NCBI GenBank assembly: GCA_021783095.1
Contig: JAJXUG010000001.1
Span: forward strand, 119,570-183,569
Source of the DNA: Chloroflexota bacterium
Lineage (GTDB): Bacteria > Chloroflexota > Limnocylindria > Limnocylindrales > CSP1-4
DNA: 64,000 nt
Direction of reading: 5' to 3'
The notes below the pieces were generated by a model, which saw only the letters and a program-made list of their open reading frames with translations, was not told the DNA's origin and did no database searches. The translations under genes were made by a program, and so were the position numbers. This document shows, one piece after another, positions 5,933-20,014 of this stretch. Position 1 is the stretch's first letter; every line of letters starts with the position of its first letter.

Positions 5933-6175
5933 AGCCGTGCTTCCGGCCTGCTGCGAGTCCACGCCACGTTAGGCGTCCCGTCTCCGCCATCCAGGCAAAG
6001 GACGACTGCGCCGTCGGGTGCCGGCCGTCAGACGAGCGATCTCGAGGCCGAATCGGCTCGAATCCCCGCCAGACAGTCGCCAGCCACGCAGATGACGATT
6101 TCCCCGGTCAGGCGTAGTCGTCCTCTGACTGGCTGGCGGAGGGGCGGGGGCCGGCGGGTTGGCACCCGCGAGCGC

Positions 6176-7834
<1,659 letters not shown>

Positions 7835-8212
7835 CGGGACCTCGGATGGGCGGGCGGGTCGTCGTGCTCACGATAGCGCGGGGCGTGGGTCAGGTTGGCA
7901 ACCTGCCGGAGTTGAGGCCGCCTGCGTCCTCTCCGGCCCAGGCCCGTTGACGCCGCAGCGCTCGGAACGGCCCAAGCGGAACTCGGACGACGGTCGAGGT
8001 CGTCGGAGGCGAGCGTCTCGCGTGCGGGACGCTCGCGTCTGCCGTCAGCCTGGAACTGCTCCCATCGCGCCATTGTGCAGGGCTCCCGCAGAAGCGTAGG
8101 ATGCGCCTGACCCGAACCAGCTCCTCGTACGGGGCTCGTCCGAGACCGCCAGCTTGTTCCGGCGGCCGGATGCATGAGCCCGCGATGCCCTGGGCGGGAT
8201 GGAGGTTCTTGC

Positions 8213-9313
<1,101 letters not shown>

Positions 9314-9387: not shown

Positions 9388-9999
9388 ATGACCGACCACG
9401 CTCCCGATCCCCTCCCCGCTGACGACCCGCTGGCCGAGCGCGTCGTGGCGTCCGAGGTGGTGCACCGCGGGCGCTACATGGAGTTCCGCGTCGACACGAT
9501 CGAGCGCGCGGACGGCAGCCGCAGCACGCGCGACATCGTGGGCCACCCGGGCGCCGTGGCGATCCTCGCGGTGGACGGGCTGGGCCGGGTGCTGTTCGTG
9601 CGCCAGTGGCGCGTGGCGGCCGGCCAGGGCCTGCTCGAGATCCCGGCCGGAACGCTCGACGTGCACGACGGCGTCACCGAGGACCCCGACGTCGCCGCCC
9701 GTCGCGAACTCGAGGAGGAGACCGGCCACCGAGCCGCCTCGTGGCGCAAGCTGGCATCCTTCTGGACCGCGCCCGGCTTCGCGTCCGAGAAGATGCACCT
9801 CTACCTCGCCGAGGGGCTGGTGCCGGTCGCCGACGACGACGATCGCCTCGCGCCCGACGAGGACGAGGCGCTCGAGCTGCGACACCTGTCCCTGGACGAG
9901 GCAGTCGGACTGGTGGAGACGGGGCGGATCGCCGACGCCAAGACCATCCTGGGCATCCTGTGGCTCGACCGGATGGGCCGGGGCACCGGCGTCGGCTGA
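9388..9999 (+). CDS. NUDIX hydrolase (ADP-ribose pyrophosphatase-like)
   Basis: The Nudix box is spread over GLLEIPAGTLDVHDGVTEDPDVAARRELEEETG. AGGAGG is 6 nt upstream of ATG 9388. Confidence 0.8.
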   Translation: MTDHAPDPLPADDPLAERVVASEVVHRGRYMEFRVDTIERADGSRSTRDIVGHPGAVAILAVDGLGRVLFVRQWRVAAGQGLLEIPAGTLDVHDGVTEDPDVAARRELEEETGHRAASWRKLASFWTAPGFASEKMHLYLAEGLVPVADDDDRLAPDEDEALELRHLSLDEAVGLVETGRIADAKTILGILWLDRMGRGTGVG

Positions 10000-10072
10000 C
10001 GGCGTCGGCTGACGGCGTCGGCCAGGGCGGGCCCAGGCAGGGGCGGACCTGCGGACCCGCCGCCCTCGGCCC

Positions 10073-10489
10073 TCAGGACCTCCCGGGCGCGCCCGGGAGC
10101 CACGCCGACGCACGGCGGAGAGCCCCGCGGTAGAGCGCCGACTCGGGCGCCATCGCACAGGCGAGCCGCAGGTGGGTCACCGCCTCGGGGACGCGATCGA
10201 GCTTGCGCAGGCTCTGTGCCAGGGCGAAGTGCCCGTAGCTCGACGAGGGGTCCACCTCGAGGAGCGCCTCGAACACCTCCCGCGCCCGGTCAGGCTGGCC
10301 GGCGTTGAAGCAGGCTCGTCCGAGGGCCTCGAGGATCGACCCGCGCCCGGGCTCGAGCCGCGCGGCGCGCTCGAGGACGACGGCGGCCTGCGCATTGTGG
10401 CGGCGCAGCATCAGTGACCGGCCCCGCTGGAGCAGCTCGTAGGCCGACTCCTGGGGCTCGTCAGGAGTCGACGTCGCATCGTCCTGCAT
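10073..10489 (-). CDS. Tetratricopeptide (TPR) repeat protein
   Basis: Two to three TPR-like helical repeats (AYELLQRG...LERAARLEP, ALGRACFNAGQPDRAREVFEALLEVDP, HFALAQSLRKLDRVPEAVTHLRLA). Coding-like GC3 bias. Confidence 0.5.
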   Translation of the reverse strand: MQDDATSTPDEPQESAYELLQRGRSLMLRRHNAQAAVVLERAARLEPGRGSILEALGRACFNAGQPDRAREVFEALLEVDPSSSYGHFALAQSLRKLDRVPEAVTHLRLACAMAPESALYRGALRRASAWLPGAPGRS

Positions 10490-10586
10490 GGCGGGATGGT
10501 CGCACGATGGGCTCGGGCGCGCCCGCGCGAGCGCCGGCCGCGGTCGGCCGGTCGGCTGGGATCGCCTCGTCCCGAACCTCGAGACG

Positions 10587-11606
10587 CTAGTCGCGCCAGG
10601 CGGCCAGGTCGAGGGTCTTGAGCCGCGGGCTCACCGTCACGCCGGGGATCCGCCCGCGCTTGGCGATCGGCTGCCCGTCGATCTCCTTGATGTCGCCGGT
10701 GAAGTCGATCGGCGTGGCGCCCGAGATGTAGCTGCCGACGGCGAACGAATCGACCGGGGCGGCCTTCTCCTTGAAGTGCTGGATCCGCTCGGGGGTCAGG
10801 CCGCCGGACACGACGATGCGGACGTGGCCGTGGCCCTCACGGTCGAGCCGCGCCCGGACCTCGGTCACGAGGTCGGCGGTGACACGACCGCGCTCGGACG
10901 GCGTGTCGAGACGGACGCCGTACAGCCGGTCGCCCAGTGCCTTGGCCACGCGGAGCGCCTCCTCCGCCTCGTCCTTGAACGTGTCCACGAGCACGATCCG
11001 AGGCACGTCGGGGGGCATGTCCCGGTCGAATGCCTCGGCGGCGCGCACGGTGTCGCCGAAGATCAGCACGAGCGAGTGGGGCATCGTCCCGGTGGGGTTG
11101 AGCTTCGCGAGACGCGCGCCGGCCGGGGTCGACGCCCCGACGCAGCCGCCGACGATCGCCGCGTAGTCGAGCACGTCGGTGATGTCCGGGTGCACGTGAC
11201 GGGCGCCGAACGAGATCACCGGCTGCGGGGCCGCGGCCTCGACACACCGGCGGGCAGCGGTGGCCCAGCCCGTGGACTGCGAGAGCATGCCCAGCATGGC
11301 GGTCTCGTACAGGGCGAAGGCGCGGTACCGAGCGTGGATGCGGAGGACGACCTCCTTGGGCGTGACGAGGTCGCCGTCCTCCATCGCCTCCACGACGGCG
11401 CCGGGTTCGTCCGCGAGCACGTGGCCGATCAGGTTGGTCGCCTCGCCCATGCCGCACAGGACCGCGTCCTCGCGGCAGAAGACCTCCATCGTCACCACGG
11501 GGTCGACGCCCTCGCGGTCGAGGATGCTGTTGGCGCGCGCGAAGTAGACGTCGGCCGTCGCGCCCGAGAGGATCTCCATGGACGGGCGGGTGCGCTGCAG
11601 ACCCAT
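10587..11606 (-). CDS. pncB: Nicotinate phosphoribosyltransferase (short archaeal/actinobacterial type)
   Basis: NAPRTase family motifs SFGARHV, IVLVDTFKDE and RLDTPSERG. The ORF is over-extended at its N-terminus; plausible starts are MGLQ (11606) or MEIL (11579). Confidence 0.75.
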   Translation of the reverse strand: MGLQRTRPSMEILSGATADVYFARANSILDREGVDPVVTMEVFCREDAVLCGMGEATNLIGHVLADEPGAVVEAMEDGDLVTPKEVVLRIHARYRAFALYETAMLGMLSQSTGWATAARRCVEAAAPQPVISFGARHVHPDITDVLDYAAIVGGCVGASTPAGARLAKLNPTGTMPHSLVLIFGDTVRAAEAFDRDMPPDVPRIVLVDTFKDEAEEALRVAKALGDRLYGVRLDTPSERGRVTADLVTEVRARLDREGHGHVRIVVSGGLTPERIQHFKEKAAPVDSFAVGSYISGATPIDFTGDIKEIDGQPIAKRGRIPGVTVSPRLKTLDLAAWRD

Positions 11607-11643
11607 CAAGCGCTCACCGCCTCCCGGGCGCTGGCCATGACGA

Positions 11644-14259
11644 TCACTGCGCTCCTTCGTCCTGCCGCTCGGCCGGGGACTGGGGCGTGGGCCCGGCCGC
11701 CGCACTGGCCGGGAGTATAGGGTACGGCCCGGGTGGCGCCGGGGGCGCTGACGGCACGGGAGGTGCCCACCAGGGCGGCGGCGCGGGCGGGGCGAGGCTC
11801 GGGTCGATCCAGTCGTCGCCGCCCGGAGCGACGTCACCGCGGCCCGCGGAAATGCCCGGGGCAAGCCAGGTGGCCCCGCCCAGGGGCGCCTCGGCGGGGC
11901 GCCCGGCGACGGGCGCCACCCCTTGGGTCGAGCCGTCGCGCGATGCGCCGACCACCAGCGCCAGGCCCGGGGAGGTGAAAGACGCTCCCGCGGCAGCCGA
12001 CGCTCGCCTCCTCGAGGCCGATCGTCGCCGGACGATCGTGACGGCCAGGATCACCAGTAGCGCGAGGGCGACGATCCCGGCGCCGATCGCGACGAGTCGC
12101 AGCCTGCCTGCGTCGGCGGCCACCAGGAGCGCGGCGTGGGCACTCGCGGCCCCGGACGCGGCCCCGGACGCGTCGCCTGACGTCCACGCGACCCGAGCCG
12201 CGGCGAGTTCGCCTGAGGGGTCCTGCCCGACGAGGCCCAGCGTGACCAGCCAGTCGCGCGGCGCCTGGAGGGCGTCGTCGGCCGCCGCCACCGCGTCCAG
12301 CGACCGGTGCAGCGCCTGCTCGTCCTCGGCGGCCTGCTTGAGCGCCTCGGGGCTCGAGGCCGTCTGGTAGGCGGTCTGGAGTTCGGCCGGGACCGCGAGA
12401 TGCTCGGCTGCAGCCTCGCCCCGGAGCGCATCGCGGAGGGCGAGCACCGCGGTCGCGTCATCGATGGTGCTCGTGGCGCCCGTGAAGTCCCAGGCGTCGA
12501 GGTCCATCCGGACGACGACCGGCGCCGCCCAGTCGCCGCCCTGCGCGACGAGGGCGTGGTAGGCGCTCCTCGCTGCGGCGCGCGGGGCGAGCAGCGCGCG
12601 CTCTGCCGTCGTCAGCACCCACGGGCCGATCATCTCTGCGATCCCGCGCCCGCCGCCAACCTCCTCGGCCAGGTCGACGAAGCGTCGCCAGTCGGCGCGC
12701 AGCGTGCTGCGCTCGGGCGCGCCCCCGGCGGGGTAGGCGGTGGTCCCGGCCTTCGCGGCCGCGAACACGGCCGCCATCTTCGTCTCGCCCAGCTTGGTGA
12801 CGGCCTGCCGCACGACCGTCCAGGACGCGTCGTAGCCCCACTGCTCGCGAGCGTCCTGGGTCCTGGTCTTGATGGGCGCGGGCGTGCCCCACGTGTCCAG
12901 CGGGAAGGCCACCGAGGCGTTGGCGCGAACCTTGGCGGGCCCGTCGACGGCCACGCCGAGGCCCTTCAGCGTCCGGTAGGCGTACTCGTCCGCGAGCCCC
13001 TCGGTGAGCCATCGGTCGGTGAACAGCGATGCGTTGAACCAGGCGTGCGAGGCCTCGTGGACAACCGTGAGCGGGTCGACGGTCTCGCTGATCGTGATCT
13101 GCTGGTTGCTGGGCGAGTAGAAGCCCGCGTACCCCTCGAGCATCGCCCCCGAGACCTCGAGCACCGACAGCTGACCGGTCACCGGCCACGGCAGGCCGAT
13201 CCGCTTCACCAGCGACGGGATGGCCGAGGTGAGCGTGCTCGCGACGTCCTTCTCCCAGGTGGGGTCCTCGGGCCAGGCGCGGACCACCACCTGCTCGCCG
13301 CCGGGGAGCTTGATCGCGCGGCTGGTGAGCGCCGCGTCGTCGCGCGCGTTGATCCAGGCGTACCAGTCGACGGGGTCGTTGACCGTCGCGGCGAGGACCT
13401 GCTGCGCGCCCGCCCCTGCTGTCTGCTCCATGGCGCTGCCCGAGGTGGCCACGGCGAATCGAGCCGGGACGTCGACCTCGACGGTCCCGCGATCGCCGAA
13501 GGCCCACGCGACGAACGTCGTGGACGCGGCGCCCACGCGGACCTGGCTGGTGGAGCGCGGGGCGCCGGCGGGCAGCAGGTACGCGACGTGGAGGTGCGCC
13601 GTCTGGCCGACATAGAGGCGCGATGCGAACTGGACCGTCAGCAGCCGGTAGCCGGTCTTCGCCTGGCTGGTGGTGCGGTCGCGGGCGCCGCCCTCATCGG
13701 CCACGATCTGGCTGGCCTCAGGCTGCACCGCGAGATTGACGCCCGGGTAGTACAACGCGGGGCCGGGGGTCACCGGGAGGCGGTTGACGGCCGTGATGTC
13801 GACGGCGACCCGGACCACCCGCGCGACCGGGTCGACCACGTAGGTCGTGTCCGTCGCCACGTCGAGGTTGTCGGCCGCGGCGAGCATGGGGCCTGGTGCG
13901 ACTCCCCGGGGCGGGGGCGGCGCGTCGAGGACGGGCGTCTGCGGCGTGGTTCGTGGCGGCGGGGCGTCGTGGGCAGGGCCCGTTGGTGTCGGGGTGGCTG
14001 GCGCGGCAATGCCCGCGGCCTGCGCCGCGACCGGGAAGGACGGGCTGGTCGCGGCAGCCGGGAAGGTGATGCTGGCGGCGACCGGGCTCGTCGGGTCGGC
14101 CGCGACCACGCTCGTCTCGGCGGCTGCCCAGGTGCCTGCCGGGGCGGGCCAGGCAAGCGCGGGGCCCTTCGCGCCGCCGGGAACGAGCGTCGCCGTGGCG
14201 ATGGCCGCGGTGCCCAGCACGGCGACCAGCCGGGCCCGCCACCCCCCGATGCTTCTCAC
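11644..14259 (-). CDS. Membrane-anchored M1-like (gluzincin) zinc metallopeptidase homologue, paralogue A
   Basis: N-terminal signal/anchor (RSIGGWRARLVAVLGTAAIATATLVPG) and a Pro-rich linker. A GAMLEGYAGFY motif sits about 25 aa before VHEASHAWFN...WLTEGLADEY, with HEXXH-X14-E spacing rather than the canonical X18. A C-terminal TM helix (LVAIGAGIVALALLVILAVTIV) is followed by an RRR stop-transfer and a Pro-rich cytoplasmic tail. The start is assigned to GTG at 14259 because upstream it would overlap the paralogue. Confidence 0.6.
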   Translation of the reverse strand: MRSIGGWRARLVAVLGTAAIATATLVPGGAKGPALAWPAPAGTWAAAETSVVAADPTSPVAASITFPAAATSPSFPVAAQAAGIAAPATPTPTGPAHDAPPPRTTPQTPVLDAPPPPRGVAPGPMLAAADNLDVATDTTYVVDPVARVVRVAVDITAVNRLPVTPGPALYYPGVNLAVQPEASQIVADEGGARDRTTSQAKTGYRLLTVQFASRLYVGQTAHLHVAYLLPAGAPRSTSQVRVGAASTTFVAWAFGDRGTVEVDVPARFAVATSGSAMEQTAGAGAQQVLAATVNDPVDWYAWINARDDAALTSRAIKLPGGEQVVVRAWPEDPTWEKDVASTLTSAIPSLVKRIGLPWPVTGQLSVLEVSGAMLEGYAGFYSPSNQQITISETVDPLTVVHEASHAWFNASLFTDRWLTEGLADEYAYRTLKGLGVAVDGPAKVRANASVAFPLDTWGTPAPIKTRTQDAREQWGYDASWTVVRQAVTKLGETKMAAVFAAAKAGTTAYPAGGAPERSTLRADWRRFVDLAEEVGGGRGIAEMIGPWVLTTAERALLAPRAAARSAYHALVAQGGDWAAPVVVRMDLDAWDFTGATSTIDDATAVLALRDALRGEAAAEHLAVPAELQTAYQTASSPEALKQAAEDEQALHRSLDAVAAADDALQAPRDWLVTLGLVGQDPSGELAAARVAWTSGDASGAASGAASAHAALLVAADAGRLRLVAIGAGIVALALLVILAVTIVRRRSASRRRASAAAGASFTSPGLALVVGASRDGSTQGVAPVAGRPAEAPLGGATWLAPGISAGRGDVAPGGDDWIDPSLAPPAPPPWWAPPVPSAPPAPPGPYPILPASAAAGPTPQSPAERQDEGAQ

Positions 14260-16370
14260 GGCTCGGGCGCCACGGACCGGGTGCGAGAGGGTCGACGGGA
14301 GCGCAGGGCCCGGCTCGCGAGCGACGCGGCCATGACCCCGAGCGCCACGACCAGCGCGGCCCCCATCAGAGCGCGCCGGCGGCCCTCGCCGCTGGCATCG
14401 CCCCACATCTGCAGGGAGGCCCGGGCAGCGGTCAGCGCCGTGGCGGTGTCGCCAGCCGCGAGGGCGGCCCTCGCGGAGGTCAGGTCGAGCTCCGGGTCCA
14501 GGCCGATCATCCCCACGCTTGTCAGCATGTCATTGCGGCCCTGGGCGCGTCCATCGAGCGCCGCTCCGATCGCCGCGATCGCCGACTCCTCGAGCTGCGC
14601 CTCGGTCACCGCGCCCGCGAGGTCGCCCGCCTCGAACAGCCGCTGCACCGTGGGCGGCAGCGTCAGGCCTGCCGCCGACGCCTGGCCCTCGAGCTTGGTC
14701 CGCTCGGCCAGCGCCGCCCGGGCCTGCGCGATGAGCGAGTCAGCCGTGTCGAACCGCCATGCCCGCAGCGCGTCGCGGATCGACCGCGGCAGGGCCCAGC
14801 CGTCCGCTGCGGCGAGCGCGCCCTGGTAGGCGGTCCTGGCTGCGGCGCGCCGGTCGAGCTGTCCGGCATCGCTGGGCCGCACGACCCACGTGCGCCACAG
14901 CGTGGTGAAGTCACTGCCGGTCTCTGCCTCCAGCAGGTCGAGGAGGCCCCGCCAGTCGGGCGCCCCGTCCACGGTCTCGGGCGTGCTGGACTGTCCGGAC
15001 GGCGGCTGGTACGCGCCGATGTGCGATGCGGCGTCAGCCCAGACCCGGGCGAGGGCGTCGGGGCCCGCCTGCTTGAGGATCTGCGCTGCCAGCGTGTAGG
15101 ACGCGGCATAGCCGAAGGATTCGGCGGCCGCGGTCGGCGCCGGGGTGGCGGGCCAGTCGTTGAGCGGGAAGCCCGCCGCCTGGAGCTTCGTCGTCAGCTC
15201 GGGTGGGGACGACTTGATCTTGAGCGCGGTGAGCGCCCGCTGTGCGTACAGGCTCGCGAAGCCCTCGACCGCCCAGCGGTCCGCCAGGAGGGTGCCGTTG
15301 AACCACGCGTGGGCGGCCTCGTGGACCACGATCGCCGAGCTCGCCCAGTAGGCCACCTGGATCGTCGACGCCATCGGGTCGTACAGCCCGGCGAAGCCGC
15401 CCGTGCTTCGGCTGACGGCCTCCTGGACGACGACCGGACCGTCATGGGGCCAGGCCAGCCCGATGTCCGAGCGCAGGAGCGGCAGTGACCGCGTGAACAG
15501 CGGCCCCACCCGGCCGGCCCAGCTCCGGTCGTCCTTCCAGGCGCGCATCGTGAGCGGGATCGTGCCGTCCGCGACCTTCACGTTGAGCTGGGTTGACAGG
15601 TACGTGGCCGGCTGCTGGGCCGAGACGAAGGCGAAGAACCCGAGCGGGTTGGCGAGGGCGTTGGTGCCGAGGACGACGCCGCCGTCCGACGCGTGCGTCT
15701 GGGTCGCGAAGGAGCCGGTCTCGACGCTGACGTCGTAGCCCTTGGGGAACTGCACGGTCACGCGGCTGCCCGAGGCGCCATCCGAGGCGTAGGCCCAGAC
15801 GGGGAAGGTGACGAGGCTCGCGCCCACGCGGACCAGGCGCTGGACGGCCGTGCCGGTGTCCCGCAGGTCGAAGGAGAACCGGAACGATGTGGTGTGCCCG
15901 CCGAACAGCTGGGCGAAGTCGAGGCGCAGCGTGGTCGCGTCCGCCCCCCGGGACGCGATGCCCACCGAGGCGCCGCTGGGGCCCTTCGTCACCTTGGGGT
16001 TGGCCGCACCGGGCTGCACGTTGAGGAACGCGTGGTCGTAGTAGAAGCGGTTGACCCGCGTGTCGGCCTCGTGATTGGAGATCGAGACGTCGACCACGAC
16101 GCTCACCCTGCCCTGGCTCGGCAGGACCGTGTAGCGGGCGGCGGTCACGATCGTCGGGCCGCTGCTCGCGCCGCGGGCGGTCGGGGCGGCAACGATGCCC
16201 GCGGGGCCGAGCAGGAGGCCGAGCATCCCGAGCACGCCGATGGCGACCACCAGCGACGCCGCCTGCCGAGGGAGGCGGGACAGCGCCGGGTGCCGCGGGG
16301 ACCGTCCGTTGATCGCCTGCGGCAGGTCGTCGCCAACCTGAGCACCGCTCGGCGGCAGCGGGGCCCTCAC
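14256..16370 (-). CDS. Membrane-anchored M1-like (gluzincin) zinc metallopeptidase homologue, paralogue B (lacks a GAMEN-like motif)
   Basis: Same architecture as paralogue A: N-terminal anchor ASLVVAIGVLGMLGLLLGPAGIVAAP, VHEAAHAWFNGTLLADRWAVEGFASLY (HEXXH-X14-E) and a C-terminal TM ALMGAALVVALGVMAASLA. The GAMEN position instead carries GGFAGLYDP. Confidence 0.6.
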   Translation of the reverse strand: MRAPLPPSGAQVGDDLPQAINGRSPRHPALSRLPRQAASLVVAIGVLGMLGLLLGPAGIVAAPTARGASSGPTIVTAARYTVLPSQGRVSVVVDVSISNHEADTRVNRFYYDHAFLNVQPGAANPKVTKGPSGASVGIASRGADATTLRLDFAQLFGGHTTSFRFSFDLRDTGTAVQRLVRVGASLVTFPVWAYASDGASGSRVTVQFPKGYDVSVETGSFATQTHASDGGVVLGTNALANPLGFFAFVSAQQPATYLSTQLNVKVADGTIPLTMRAWKDDRSWAGRVGPLFTRSLPLLRSDIGLAWPHDGPVVVQEAVSRSTGGFAGLYDPMASTIQVAYWASSAIVVHEAAHAWFNGTLLADRWAVEGFASLYAQRALTALKIKSSPPELTTKLQAAGFPLNDWPATPAPTAAAESFGYAASYTLAAQILKQAGPDALARVWADAASHIGAYQPPSGQSSTPETVDGAPDWRGLLDLLEAETGSDFTTLWRTWVVRPSDAGQLDRRAAARTAYQGALAAADGWALPRSIRDALRAWRFDTADSLIAQARAALAERTKLEGQASAAGLTLPPTVQRLFEAGDLAGAVTEAQLEESAIAAIGAALDGRAQGRNDMLTSVGMIGLDPELDLTSARAALAAGDTATALTAARASLQMWGDASGEGRRRALMGAALVVALGVMAASLASRALRSRRPSRTRSVAPEP

Positions 16371-16912
16371 GAGCCGGATCCGCCGAAGTCAGTCAACAGC
16401 TCCGCCAGCTCCGCCGAGTAGCGCGCCATGAGGCGCATGCCGGGCCCGTCGGGGTCGGCCGGGGGCGCGGTGCGCCAGCCGCCCGCCTTGAGCCACTCGA
16501 TCGACTCCGCGTGGAGGCGGTCGGCGACGGCCACCTGCCGGGCGAGGGCCAGCCCGAGGTCGTCGCGTCCGACGGTGGCGGCGGGCATCTCCGCGACCAG
16601 CAGCGGGCGCTCGTCCTCGCCGACGCTGAACTTGACGAACGGCAGCTCGTCGTTCCAGCGCAGCAGCTTGCGGTACGACTTGCGGAAGCTGTCGTTGACC
16701 GGGGGCGCGAAGTGGCACCAGCAGATGAGCGCCAGGCCGGGATCCAGGATCAGCGTGATCCGCAGCGAGGCGCGCCGGCGCCCGTCGAGGACGATGTCCC
16801 ACGAGGTCACGCCCTCGCGGTCGCTGCGCTCGAGCGGGGTGACGCCAAGGTCGGCGAGCCAGGCCTCGACGTCGGCGGGACCGCACGCCTCGGCCCGGGG
16901 AGCGATGGACAT
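16367..16912 (-). CDS. Hypothetical protein, YbjN-like (putative sensory-transduction regulator/T3SS-chaperone-like fold)
   Basis: Start MSIAPRAEACG at 16912; the ORF from 16990 is over-extended. WDIVLDGRRRASLRITLILDP...ALICWCHF fits a YbjN-like pattern. Its stop overlaps the start of paralogue B by 4 nt. Confidence 0.4.
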   Translation of the reverse strand: MSIAPRAEACGPADVEAWLADLGVTPLERSDREGVTSWDIVLDGRRRASLRITLILDPGLALICWCHFAPPVNDSFRKSYRKLLRWNDELPFVKFSVGEDERPLLVAEMPAATVGRDDLGLALARQVAVADRLHAESIEWLKAGGWRTAPPADPDGPGMRLMARYSAELAELLTDFGGSGS

Positions 16913-17035
16913 GGCCCGCAGTCTACCCGAGGGCGCGGAACCGTCGGCCAGGGGACGCGCTTCCGTGGAGCCGTCAGAGGAGCCGCTCACTCGCTGGCGA
17001 CGCGACGAGGAGCCTGCGCCGCCGTCGGCCGAGAG

Positions 17036-18397
17036 CTAGGTGGCCCCGATCACCTGGTCCTCGTCGTCGGGGGCGCGATCGGGCCGCCGCTCCACGGTCC
17101 CCCCGGCGCGGACGATCCGCGTCGAGAAGTCGGACGAGCGGACCTGGCCGCCCACCTTCACGTTCCGGCCGAGGCGCGCGCCGCGCGGGATGATCGACTG
17201 CTTGCCGATCACGGTGATGCCGGTGTTGAGGCGGCTGGGCTCGGCCCTGTTCGGGGTGTCGAAGTCGGGCCCGTCGCCGACGATCGCGCCCTGGCCGACC
17301 GTGACCTCCTTGTCGAGGATCGCCCGGTCCACCACGGCGCCGCTGCGGACGACGGTGTCGAACATCAGGATCGAGTCTCGGACCACGGCGCCCACGTCCA
17401 CCCGGACGCCCGGCGACAGCACGCTGTTGACCACCGTGCCGTTGATGACGCAGCCGTGCGAGATGAGGCTCCGGTGCACCTGCGCCGTCGGGCCCACCTT
17501 GGCCGGCGCGCGCTCCTCGGACCGGGTGTGGATCAGCCACTCGCGGTCGTACAGGTCGAGCTCGGGGTTGTCGTCCAGCAGCGCCATGTTGGCTTCCCAG
17601 AACGTCTGGACCGTCCCCACATCCTGCCAGTAGCCGTCGAAGCGGTAGCCGAACACGCGGGCGCCGGCCTCGAGCATGGCGGGGACGACGTGGCCCCCGA
17701 AGTCGGTCCGCTCCTCGGACAGGAAGCGCCGCAGCGCGCGCTTGGAGAACACGTAGACGCCCATCGACGCGAGGTCGCTCTTGGGCTGCTTGGGCTTCTC
17801 CTGCCACTCGATGACGCGCTCCTGGTCGTCCAGGGCCAGGATGCCCATCCGGCTCGCCTCGGACAGCGGCACGCGCCGAACGGCGATCGTCACGTCCGCG
17901 CGGCGGCGGCGGTGGGCGGCGACGAACGGCGTGTAGTCCATCTTGTAGATGTGGTCGCCGGCCAGGACCAGCACGGTGTCGCCGGCATCGTGCTCGATGA
18001 CGTTGAAGTTCTGGAGCACGGCGTCGGCGGTGCCGCGGTACCACTCGGCCACGCGCCCGCGCTTCACGTACGGCTGGAGCATCTTCACGCCGCCGGTGTT
18101 GCGGTCGAGGTCCCACGGTCGCCCCAGGCCGATGTGGTCGTTGAGCGACCGGGGATTGTACTGGGTCAGCACCATGACGTGCTGGATGCCCGAGTTGACG
18201 CAGTTCGACAGGGTGAAGTCGATGATCCGGTACTTGCCGCCGAATGGCACGGCGGGCTTGGCGCGCACCGAGGACAGGATCGACAGCCGCTCGCCCTCGC
18301 CGCCAGCGAGGATGATCGCCATGACGGGTTTCGCCAACGTCGTTCCTCCGGACCTGCGGGGACCTGCCCCGATCCTAGCACCGCCCGACTTCGCCAT
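17036..18397 (-). CDS. glgC: Glucose-1-phosphate adenylyltransferase
   Basis: AIILAGGEGERL (G-rich NTP-binding loop), KPAVPFGGKYRIIDF and the C-terminal left-handed beta-helix region. Start taken at MAKSGG (18397); an alternative is the ATG about 75 nt downstream giving MAIILAGG. Confidence 0.9.
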   Translation of the reverse strand: MAKSGGARIGAGPRRSGGTTLAKPVMAIILAGGEGERLSILSSVRAKPAVPFGGKYRIIDFTLSNCVNSGIQHVMVLTQYNPRSLNDHIGLGRPWDLDRNTGGVKMLQPYVKRGRVAEWYRGTADAVLQNFNVIEHDAGDTVLVLAGDHIYKMDYTPFVAAHRRRRADVTIAVRRVPLSEASRMGILALDDQERVIEWQEKPKQPKSDLASMGVYVFSKRALRRFLSEERTDFGGHVVPAMLEAGARVFGYRFDGYWQDVGTVQTFWEANMALLDDNPELDLYDREWLIHTRSEERAPAKVGPTAQVHRSLISHGCVINGTVVNSVLSPGVRVDVGAVVRDSILMFDTVVRSGAVVDRAILDKEVTVGQGAIVGDGPDFDTPNRAEPSRLNTGITVIGKQSIIPRGARLGRNVKVGGQVRSSDFSTRIVRAGGTVERRPDRAPDDEDQVIGAT

Positions 18398-18416
18398 GTG
18401 ACCCGCGAAGTCCCTG

Positions 18417-19772
18417 CTAGGTGAACAGCTGCGGGTTAACGAACGTCCCGTTGAACTCCACCATCCAGTGGAGGTGGGCACCGGTCGAGTGGCCGGTGCT
18501 GCCCTCGTAGCCGATGACCTGCCCCCGGCTCACGTGGTCCCCCGCGCGGACCGGGTAGGTGGGCTGCATGTGGGCGTACCAGGTCACGAGCGAGGTGCTG
18601 TGGGCGATGATCACGATCCAGGCCGGGTTGGCGCCGTCGGCGTAGTTCCAGCCCACGTAGACCACGGTGCCGTCGCCGGCCGAGTGGACCGGCGTCCCGT
18701 ACGGCGCCACCAGGTCGATCCCGTTGTGGTAGTGGGCGCAGTTGCCGTAGGGCGGCTCCCAGATGAACCCGGTGCAGCCGAACGGCTGGGTGATGGACCC
18801 GGACATCGGCCATTGGAGGGTGCCGTTGTACTGGCTCGGGATGTTCCCGTGGCTCGCCTGGGCGGCGATGATCGAGTCGATCTTCCTCTGGAGCTGGGCG
18901 CGGGCCGCGCCGGCCTTGGCGAGGGCAGCACGGAGGGCCGCCTTGTTGGCCGAGACGGTCGCGTACTGCGCCTTCTGGGCCGCCAGCGCCGCCTTGGCGG
19001 CCGCCTCGAGCGCCTTGAGGCGCTTGGTGGCGGCGGCCAGGTCGGCGATCTTGCGGTCGAGGGCCTGCTTCTGGACGGCGGCCTGCTGGCCCAAAACCTC
19101 GGTCTGGTCGCGAGTCTCCGAGACCGTCTGGTGGAGCGCGAGCAGCGTCGCCTGGTCGGACGCGACCTGCGCCGCGAGCTGCTGGTCCTGCGACGCGGCG
19201 TCGAGCTGGGTCGACATCGCCGCGAGCATGTCGGTGAACGACGCGCCCGAGAGCAGGGTCTCGAGCAGCGAGGTGCGCTGGTCGTCGTAGGCCACCCGGA
19301 CGCGCTCCGCGAGCTGCGCCTGGTGCTGGCCGAGCTCCACCCGCTTGGCCGCCTCCTGCGCCTCGATCGAGGCCAGCTGTGCGTCGAGGTCCGCGAGGCT
19401 CGACATCAGGTCGTTGTACTGGCCCTGGACGGTGGCGAGGTCCTTCGTCAGGGCGGAGACCTGCTGGCGCGTGGCCGCAAGGTTCTGGGTGATGCCCGCG
19501 AGCTGCGTCGTGGTCTGGCTGATCTGGCCGGCGAGCGAGGCCTGGGACGCGTTGAGCGCCGCGATCTGCGACTTCTCCGCCGCGATCTTGGCCTCGAGCG
19601 CCTTCTTCTGCGCCTGCGCGTCCGAGAGCTGGTCCGCGAAGACGGCCGAGGGCGCGGCGACATGGCCCGCGAAGGCGCCCATCAGCAGCGGCACGATGAG
19701 CAGGGCGGTGATGGTGCGTCGCCCGATGCCACGACGGGCTCGGGGGAAGTGCTGCGCGACGGTGCGGGTCAA
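18417..19772 (-). CDS. Secreted M23 family peptidase with a long N-terminal coiled-coil (EnvC/RipA-like)
   Basis: Signal peptide (ALLIVPLLMGAFAGHVAAPSAVFA), about 280 aa of heptad-rich Ala/Gln coiled coil, then an M23 LytM domain (HNGIDLVAPYGTPVHSAGDGTV...HSTGAHLHWMVEFNG). Confidence 0.85.
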   Translation of the reverse strand: MTRTVAQHFPRARRGIGRRTITALLIVPLLMGAFAGHVAAPSAVFADQLSDAQAQKKALEAKIAAEKSQIAALNASQASLAGQISQTTTQLAGITQNLAATRQQVSALTKDLATVQGQYNDLMSSLADLDAQLASIEAQEAAKRVELGQHQAQLAERVRVAYDDQRTSLLETLLSGASFTDMLAAMSTQLDAASQDQQLAAQVASDQATLLALHQTVSETRDQTEVLGQQAAVQKQALDRKIADLAAATKRLKALEAAAKAALAAQKAQYATVSANKAALRAALAKAGAARAQLQRKIDSIIAAQASHGNIPSQYNGTLQWPMSGSITQPFGCTGFIWEPPYGNCAHYHNGIDLVAPYGTPVHSAGDGTVVYVGWNYADGANPAWIVIIAHSTSLVTWYAHMQPTYPVRAGDHVSRGQVIGYEGSTGHSTGAHLHWMVEFNGTFVNPQLFT

Positions 19773-20014
19773 CGAAGAGGCGTCCTCATCTCGTGCGAGC
19801 TGTCTCCGTCATCGTCGACGCCCCTCGGCGCCGGGGTGCTCGGCTACCACGCTCGCCGGATACGGCGCCGCCTCGGAAGGGCACGCCCGAGACGACAGTG
19901 AACCGGCGCTGCTCGGAGTGTAACAGCGGGATCAACCCGCGGCCGCGGGACGTGTCGCGGCCGCGGGACGATGGTCCCGGCATTGCAGCAGACCCAGGCA
20001 CACCGGACGCGAAG

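Follow-up and report, generated by a model that had tools for sequence, protein, structure and literature searches.

The three-gene locus

We analyzed a 64,000-nucleotide (nt) stretch of DNA from a Chloroflexota bacterium (NCBI GenBank assembly GCA_021783095.1, contig JAJXUG010000001.1, positions 119,570 to 183,569 of the forward strand), which we call the window and which has a G+C content of ~72%. Our subject is a run of three consecutive minus-strand genes, transcribed in the order YbjN-like gene, paralogue B, paralogue A (Table 1). A and B appear to be membrane-anchored zinc peptidases of an unclassified family that is related to the M1 aminopeptidases, and the YbjN-like gene is coupled to B. 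An alignment of A and B has 31% identity over ~635 residues with an E-value of 4e-61, which is far beyond chance and agrees with the initial annotation that the two genes are paralogous.

The initial annotation also had the YbjN-like gene following the pair and overlapping its 3' end by 4 nt. The 4-nt overlap is there, but the order is not: because the genes lie on the minus strand, the YbjN-like gene is first in transcription and not last, so it sits upstream and is coupled to the start of B. Both junctions are GTGA stop/start overlaps, one between the YbjN-like stop and the B start and the other between the B stop and the GTG start of A. To compare with other genomes, we ran a scan with a single genome for each species; 273 genomes contained relatives, and 80 loci were retrieved. 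Of 71 loci, 63 join the YbjN-like gene to B by an NTGA overlap (ATGA, GTGA or TTGA), which persists at B identities as low as 42–45%, and the B-to-A junctions are overlaps or gaps of at most 16 nt in most loci. With overlaps at both junctions, we agree that the pair and the YbjN-like gene form one unit. All of the sequence features quoted in the initial annotation were recovered in the DNA.

Hydropathy and the model of B (described below) agree with the architecture that was first proposed for the pair, which is an N-terminal anchor, a beta-rich region, a catalytic core, a helical C-terminal region and a single C-terminal transmembrane (TM) helix. The C-terminal 180 amino acids (aa) form a generic helical stalk that runs into the TM helix. 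Paralogue A is built like B, with two additions, a Pro/Ala-rich linker and a Pro-rich cytoplasmic tail of 123 aa; the tail was found after the C-terminal TM helix as annotated. The linker is a low-complexity stretch of ~95 residues between the anchor and the beta domain. Most orthologues do not have it and their consensus is much shorter than A across this region, so it is an expansion specific to this lineage.

Table 1. Features of the locus and its surroundings, in window coordinates.
Feature	Position	Strand	Remarks
YbjN-like gene	16367-16912	-	181 aa from ATG at 16912; longest open reading frame (ORF) reaches 16990
Paralogue B	14256-16370	-	704 aa; N-terminal anchor, M1-like beta and catalytic domains, helical stalk, C-terminal TM helix
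B N-terminal signal-anchor, residues 38-60	16191-16259	-	hydropathy; preceded by an Arg-containing segment
B zinc site HEAAH-X14-E (H350, E351, H354, E369)	15264-15323	-	VHEAAHAWFNG...WAVEGFA
B Tyr421, candidate transition-state Tyr (PepN Tyr381 equivalent)	15108-15110	-	hhalign to PepN
B C-terminal TM helix, residues 666-689	14304-14375	-	hydropathy and model; short Arg-rich tail after it
Paralogue A	11644-14259	-	871 aa plus stop (872 codons); longest ORF reaches 14406
A N-terminal hydrophobic anchor or signal, residues 9-30	14170-14235	-	hydropathy
A Pro/Ala-rich linker, residues 31-125	13885-14169	-	translation
A GAMLEG loop, possible GXMEN equivalent	13132-13149	-	only Glu375-Gly-Tyr conserved
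A zinc site HEASH-X14-E (H401, E402, H405, E420)	13000-13059	-	VHEASHAWFN...WLTEGLA
A Tyr476, aligned with PepN Tyr381	12832-12834	-	BLASTP and hhalign
A C-terminal TM helix region, residues 717-748	12016-12111	-	hydropathy
A cytoplasmic Pro-rich tail, 123 aa	11644-12015	-	ends in conserved PY(P/A)(I/T)LP...DEGA
A tail motif	11644-11740	-	PYPILPAS...QDEGAQ, then the stop
M23 peptidase gene	18417-19772	-	PcsB/EnvC-like coiled coil
GlgC-type nucleotidyltransferase gene	17036-18481	-	
Quinolinate/nicotinate-type phosphoribosyltransferase gene	10587-11606	-	~37 nt past the A stop
MalK-like ABC ATPase ORF	8174-9313	+	ABC_tran, OB_MalK and TOBE_2
malK-III RNA motif (Rfam RF03009)	8113-8215	+	75.5 bits, E 2.6e-15

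Relation to the M1 peptidases

The only Pfam family that A and B match is Peptidase_M1 (PF01433), and both matches (A 13.6 bits, B 14.8 bits) are below the gathering score of 27.7 bits, while an NCBIfam scan gave nothing above threshold for the proteins of the locus. A profile of the B family searched against PDB sequences found M1 aminopeptidases only, plus one unrelated designed protein, with a best E-value of 0.004. The match spans HExxHxWFN...EGFA and requires a gap of 4 residues, as does the hhalign alignment to M1.

The AlphaFold model of B, built on a 32-sequence alignment, is confident, with a mean predicted local distance difference test score (pLDDT) of 85.5 and a predicted template modeling score (pTM) of 0.74. 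It starts with an N-terminal helix, a beta domain (~72-278), a helix and three strands, continues with the HExxH helix (345-357) and the Glu369 helix (365-382), and ends in an all-helical region that leads into the C-terminal TM helix. When we searched with this model in Foldseek, the top 50 matches were all M1 enzymes with E ~1e-14. Other MA(E) gluzincins with elements resembling M1, namely M61 glycyl aminopeptidase, the M30 peptidases hyicolysin and lugdulysin, and thermolysin (M4), were lower structural matches than M1, and they do not have the WFN/EGFA signature. The predicted fold has both the N-terminal beta domain and the thermolysin-like catalytic domain of M1. The helical ERAP1_C/ARM-like domain that is typical of M1 C-termini, though not universal, is absent, and the stalk matches no M1 C-terminal domain.

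Given M1-only profile matches, a fold that matches M1 enzymes first and a sub-threshold Pfam score, we believe that the pair was rightly described as divergent, membrane-anchored, M1-like gluzincins. It was also right not to place them in a characterized family, since NCBIfam has nothing for them, Pfam stays below its threshold and every named entry among the homologues is called 'hypothetical protein'. A literature search on Limnocylindria peptidases and on M1 pseudoenzymes and heterodimers found nothing on this family.

The zinc site and the missing GXMEN motif

In both A and B there are exactly 14 residues between HEXXH and the Glu ligand, as initially noted, and this spacing occurs in 322 of ~360 motif instances among 383 homologues. 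A and B thus do not have the HEXXH-X18-E of M1. Peptidases of clan MA(E) have the Glu ligand at least 14 residues after HEXXH, and the M1 signatures are HEXXH-X18-E and GAMEN (PMC10221039). Both proteins have the Glu at the required distance and a predicted thermolysin-like fold, as expected for MA(E) gluzincins. By this definition, the X14 spacing puts the family at the lower limit of clan MA(E) and outside the M1 signature.

To measure residue conservation, we aligned A-type and B-type proteins, 174 of each. The first His is conserved in 173 A-type and 161 B-type proteins, the catalytic Glu in 173 and 163, the second His in 173 and 170, the Glu ligand in 173 and 172, and the catalytic Tyr in 173 and 142, respectively. 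The HEXXH and Glu residues are thus kept in nearly all A-type and most B-type orthologues, and ~7–18% of the B-type sequences have lost a zinc ligand, the catalytic Glu or the Tyr. In the window genome both A and B keep all five residues (H, E, H, E and Y).

The catalytic Tyr, which in M1 enzymes is Tyr381 of PepN or Tyr383 of LTA4H, was located by alignment to E. coli PepN. The PepN residues H297, H301 and E320, its 'HPIR' segment and Tyr381 are co-linear with H401, H405, E420, 'PAPIK' and Tyr476 of A. At the catalytic Tyr, GYDASWTVVRQAVTKLGE aligns with PepN VYEKGAEVIRMIHTLLGE, with weak statistics (E 0.05-1.8); the individual BLASTP and hhalign alignments to PepN have E-values of 1.8, 0.055 and 0.19.

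The initial annotation proposed that only A keeps a GAMEN-like motif. The letters are as described, GAMLEG in A and STGGFAG in B, but the 'GAM' of GAMLEG is coincidental and specific to the window lineage. In A-type proteins the loop has the consensus T-P-L-L-E-G-Y-A-G, of which the Glu is kept by 131 of 174, and in B-type and single-copy proteins it has S-T-G-G-Y-A-G. There are two ways to place the loop on M1. With low confidence, hhalign sets the A/B loop on the GAMEN of PepN, and the three-strand pattern of the B model agrees. Ungapped extension of the HMMER alignment favors instead E317 in B and E368 in A, which lie 33 residues before HExxH, the same distance as between E264 of the PepN GAMEN and H297, and are conserved in both types (165–168 of 174). 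On either placement, the canonical GXMEN is absent from the A-type and B-type loop alignments. We also considered the invariant Arg181 (VRVG) as a stand-in for Glu121 of the PepN N-domain, and the extended hhalign alignment gave no support for it.

One explanation of these results is that A and B are ordinary M1 enzymes similar to aminopeptidase N, that their low scores come only from high G+C and compositional bias, and that there is nothing new here. The best fold matches are indeed M1 enzymes, HExxHxWFN...EGFA is M1-like, the Tyr aligns, and some natural B-A fusion proteins (discussed in the next section) have a precomputed PF01433 match. Against this, Pfam scores remain below gathering and NCBIfam finds nothing, X14 replaces X18 throughout the family, GXMEN is absent, the C-terminal domain is not M1-like, there are two TM anchors, and all of the named database entries are hypothetical. 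We consider this explanation most unlikely. Instead, we favor a gluzincin family that is as yet unclassified and has arisen from the fold of the M1 aminopeptidases, which would be a family-level variant and not a categorically new system. This is part of an overall explanation that is weighed further below and to which we give a probability of about 60%.

Distribution, paralogue loss and fusions

A word-seeded search returned more than 1,100 homologues for B and 352 for A, and an exhaustive profile search returned 2,216 clusters at 50% identity with E <= 1e-3, 1,009 of them with E <= 1e-30. The few organism names among these entries are Candidatus Limnocylindrales or Chloroflexota metagenome-assembled genomes. 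The 80 retrieved loci are labelled Chloroflexota or Limnocylindrales, except for a few labelled Anaerolineaceae or Saccharimonadales; these labels are probably wrong because the loci have the same synteny. Judging from these sequences, the module appears to be specific to the class Limnocylindria (Chloroflexota).

The initial annotation suggested looking at co-occurrence of the three genes, and we found that the YbjN-like gene and B form a near-universal core to which A is an accessory. Of the genomes compared, 46 have A and 31 do not, and in the latter the next recognized gene after B is a phosphoribosyltransferase or a tetratricopeptide repeat (TPR) protein. B is retained throughout, and it is A that can be dispensed with. 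In a neighbor-joining tree, the A-type and B-type proteins are reciprocally monophyletic with congruent internal topology, and single-copy proteins fall at several places inside the B clade. From this we conclude that the duplication is old and that A has been lost repeatedly while B was always kept.

The two copies also differ in how their active sites fare. In all 44 cases that could be read, A has an intact HExxH..E. Degenerate B copies occur in 13 of the 46 genomes with a pair, in forms (HQxxH, RQxxH and NExxH) that require at least 4 independent changes (NE, RQ, and HQ twice), versus 2 of the 31 single-copy genomes. The pair had been described as an active enzyme and a partner of altered specificity or no activity. 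The comparison supports this for the family, with A intact in every readable case and B degenerate in 13 pairs, but not for the window, where B is intact.

In 12 protein clusters from different sources, B and A are naturally fused in frame into proteins of 1,354–1,436 aa. The layout is a TM helix, the B ectodomain, a TM helix, a short Arg-rich loop, a TM helix, the A ectodomain, a TM helix and a tail, and 11 of the 12 clusters keep both HExxH motifs. The N-terminal segment of A corresponds to the third TM helix of the fusions, so it can serve as a membrane anchor. This layout fits a topology in which termini and loops would be inside and the ectodomains outside.

These observations bear on whether A and B work together. 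They could be independent membrane-tethered peptidases with differing specificities that do not associate and that the tandem coupling only co-expresses. This would fit with the ancient divergence into reciprocally monophyletic clades, the difference between LLEGY in A and GGY in B at the GXMEN-like loop, the loss of A in many lineages that retain B, and the intact catalytic residues of both proteins in the window. It does not explain well why in-frame B-A fusions are retained across a diversified clade or why B tolerates catalytic loss mainly when A is present, which suggests a non-catalytic role of B that is tied to A. We think independence is unlikely, though it deserves some weight, and we continue with the reading in which A and B associate.

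The YbjN-like gene and the cytoplasmic tails

The YbjN-like protein matches Pfam PF10722 with an E-value of 8.5e-11 (42.6 bits versus a cutoff of 22), and hydropathy gives no hydrophobic segment in it. Its orthologues have 180–181 aa, and of 79 loci that could be assessed, 76 have the gene upstream of B. It is far better conserved than its neighbors, with 55–93% identity across loci compared with 42–83% for B and 38–74% for A. A homologue search found at least 120 relatives. Among the matches listed, all are at least 71% identical and have a precomputed PF10722 match, the named ones are Chloroflexota or Limnocylindrales, and there is no genomic context from outside this clade.

The only loss of the YbjN-like gene that we saw is in a sub-clade near the window organism (L005, L008 and L009), where the YbjN-like gene, A and the tail are lost together and B ends just past its TM helix.

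YbjN relatives have a partner-binding fold like that of class I chaperones of type III secretion systems (T3SS) (PMC3575483, PMC5398634), and Deinococcus DR1245 binds a specific partner protein (PMC5398634, PMC3575483). In our literature search, no paper connected a YbjN protein with a peptidase partner. Other known members of the family, such as E. coli YbjN and Erwinia AmyR, share the PF10722 domain with DR1245 and the window protein, but the window gene differs from them in its translational coupling to the gene for a membrane ecto-peptidase, a coupling that extends throughout a bacterial class.

A-type proteins, and also many single-copy B-type proteins, end in a conserved cytoplasmic motif, PYATLP...(D/E)EGA(D/E); the window version is given in Table 1. 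We saw tails of this type at loci L015, L017, L024, L029, L031, L033, L035, L043, L044, L047, L048, L050, L051, L055, L061, L072, L076, L077 and L079. Other B tails bear a basic RMQAHRxK or VQAHRVR motif. Both kinds resemble short linear motifs directed at a partner in the cytoplasm.

Conserved tails next to a YbjN-like gene could also mean that these proteins are not primarily hydrolases. The ectodomain might be a peptide-binding sensor or scaffold that signals through the TM helices and the tails (PYATLP...DEGA and RMQAHRxK) to the YbjN-like protein as a 'sensory transduction regulator'. The tight coupling and high conservation of the YbjN-like protein are in line with this, as is the retention of B even when it is catalytically degenerate, and peptide-binding M1 pseudoenzymes such as Tma108 do exist (PMC11266112). 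But no signalling output domain is present, and the five catalytic residues are near-perfect in A-type proteins and intact in 29 of 31 single-copy B proteins. Residues this conserved indicate that catalysis is under selection, so we find a sensor very unlikely and return to a peptidase module.

Proposed mechanism

Our best explanation, and the one to which the probability above belongs, is that the locus encodes a zinc peptidase module that works outside the cytoplasm, probably as a heterodimer, and that has a cytoplasmic chaperone or adaptor of its own. A and B would each be tethered to the cytoplasmic membrane by the N-terminal anchor and the C-terminal TM helix, with the catalytic ectodomains facing outward and acting as zinc peptidases at the outer face of that membrane. 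By analogy with M1 chemistry, the zinc would be held by both His of HExxH and the Glu 14 residues downstream, the HExxH Glu would activate water, and the Tyr equivalent to PepN Tyr381 would stabilize the transition state.

B would be the indispensable copy, made in step with the YbjN-like protein through translational coupling, and A the accessory copy whose active site is apparently never lost. The fusions and the degeneration pattern suggest that the two associate as a heterodimer and that selection holds at least one intact active site per genome or module. In the window lineage both sites can probably be active, and in other lineages B seems to have turned into a non-catalytic partner. Since B is kept even when inactive, we believe it has an extra, non-catalytic role. 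The YbjN-like protein is most likely a dedicated chaperone or adaptor for B, and by analogy with its relatives it may act in export, in assembly or by binding the tail.

Several observations weigh against this explanation. The sequence similarity to M1 is marginal (Pfam ~14 versus 27.7 bits, hhalign E 0.05-0.3), and a profile of the A-type proteins searched against PDB sequences gave no match at E <= 10. GXMEN is not conserved, so aminopeptidase specificity should not be assumed. A has been lost repeatedly, so a heterodimer is not obligatory. The enrichment of B degeneration in paired genomes has a Fisher p of 0.02 from a test that ignores phylogenetic non-independence, and the fusions may go back to one or two events within one clade. 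Presence of the YbjN-like gene does not correlate cleanly with a particular tail motif, as many genomes keep the gene without A or a PYATL tail. Finally, two loci have a single copy that is degenerate and appear to break the pattern of one intact active site or more per genome, L045 (HQAAH, B at 6001-8007 of that locus) and L008 (QEAAH). The L008 contig has ~1.75x coverage, and a sequencing error or a second copy elsewhere is possible in both cases.

A more far-reaching version is that the module is an envelope machine of a new kind, in which a heterodimeric ecto-peptidase anchored at both ends, with the ancestral B mainly as a scaffold or regulatory partner, would connect through its conserved tail motifs (PYATLP...DEGA and RMQAHRxK) to the dedicated T3SS-chaperone-like protein. 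Since GXMEN is missing, this peptidase would have a specificity other than that of an aminopeptidase. If this were true, proteolysis outside the cytoplasm would be linked to a step of assembly or signalling within it. We consider it quite unlikely, and the simpler peptidase module described above is the reading that we prefer.

Neighboring genes

The M23 peptidase gene and the GlgC-type nucleotidyltransferase gene lie directly upstream of the YbjN-like gene. Across the 80 loci, M23 and GlgC are followed in turn by YbjN, B, (A), a quinolinate/nicotinate-type phosphoribosyltransferase ('NAPRT') and a TPR protein. The phosphoribosyltransferase gene is missing from some loci, and the synteny is unusually stable for functionally unrelated genes. 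The M23, GlgC and phosphoribosyltransferase neighbors are conserved in position and give no clue to function. A scan of 9900-20000 for promoters and terminators was uninformative and found no terminator-like site between A and the phosphoribosyltransferase gene. With this gene on the same strand and so short a gap, it may be co-transcribed with the module. Further along, the malK-III RNA motif is at the 5' end of the MalK-like ABC ATPase ORF.

Comparison with known systems and significance

The M1 peptidases that we compared include aminopeptidase N (PepN), ERAP1/2, IRAP, PSA, LTA4H, the tricorn factor F3 and the two-domain M1dr (6A8Z). In these the Glu is at X18 and GXMEN is present, whereas A and B have X14, no conserved GXMEN and scores below the Pfam threshold. 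In place of M1 domains III/IV, A and B have a helical-bundle stalk with anchors at both termini. They also differ from M1 in occurring as a tandem paralogue pair or a fusion, together with a coupled YbjN-like gene.

There is a likeness to the alpha and beta subunits of the mitochondrial processing peptidase (MPP; M16; PMC11266112) and to ERAP1-ERAP2 (PMC9234130), which are paralogous pairs with one subunit that is always catalytic and another that keeps the fold and may lose catalytic residues yet be retained. MPP differs in clan and fold, both A and B are intact in the window, and their physical association is a prediction. A further difference from both models is that in the A/B module it is the accessory copy, A, that is always active.

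We see no indication of a new biochemical principle. What this analysis defines is an unannotated peptidase family of ~2,200 clusters at 50% identity without a Pfam or NCBIfam model. Its gene belongs to the syntenic core of Limnocylindria and is near-universal there; this class is abundant in soil and freshwater, and very few of its proteins have been characterized. The family extends the M1 fold with a minimal HEXXH-X14-E spacing, loss of GXMEN and a new C-terminal stalk with dual membrane anchoring. The family also offers a natural series for the evolution of paralogous peptidases, from one copy through two intact copies and a pair with one degenerate member to a fusion of the two. The class-wide coupling of a YbjN-like gene to a peptidase gene provides a concrete partner candidate for a protein family of vague function.

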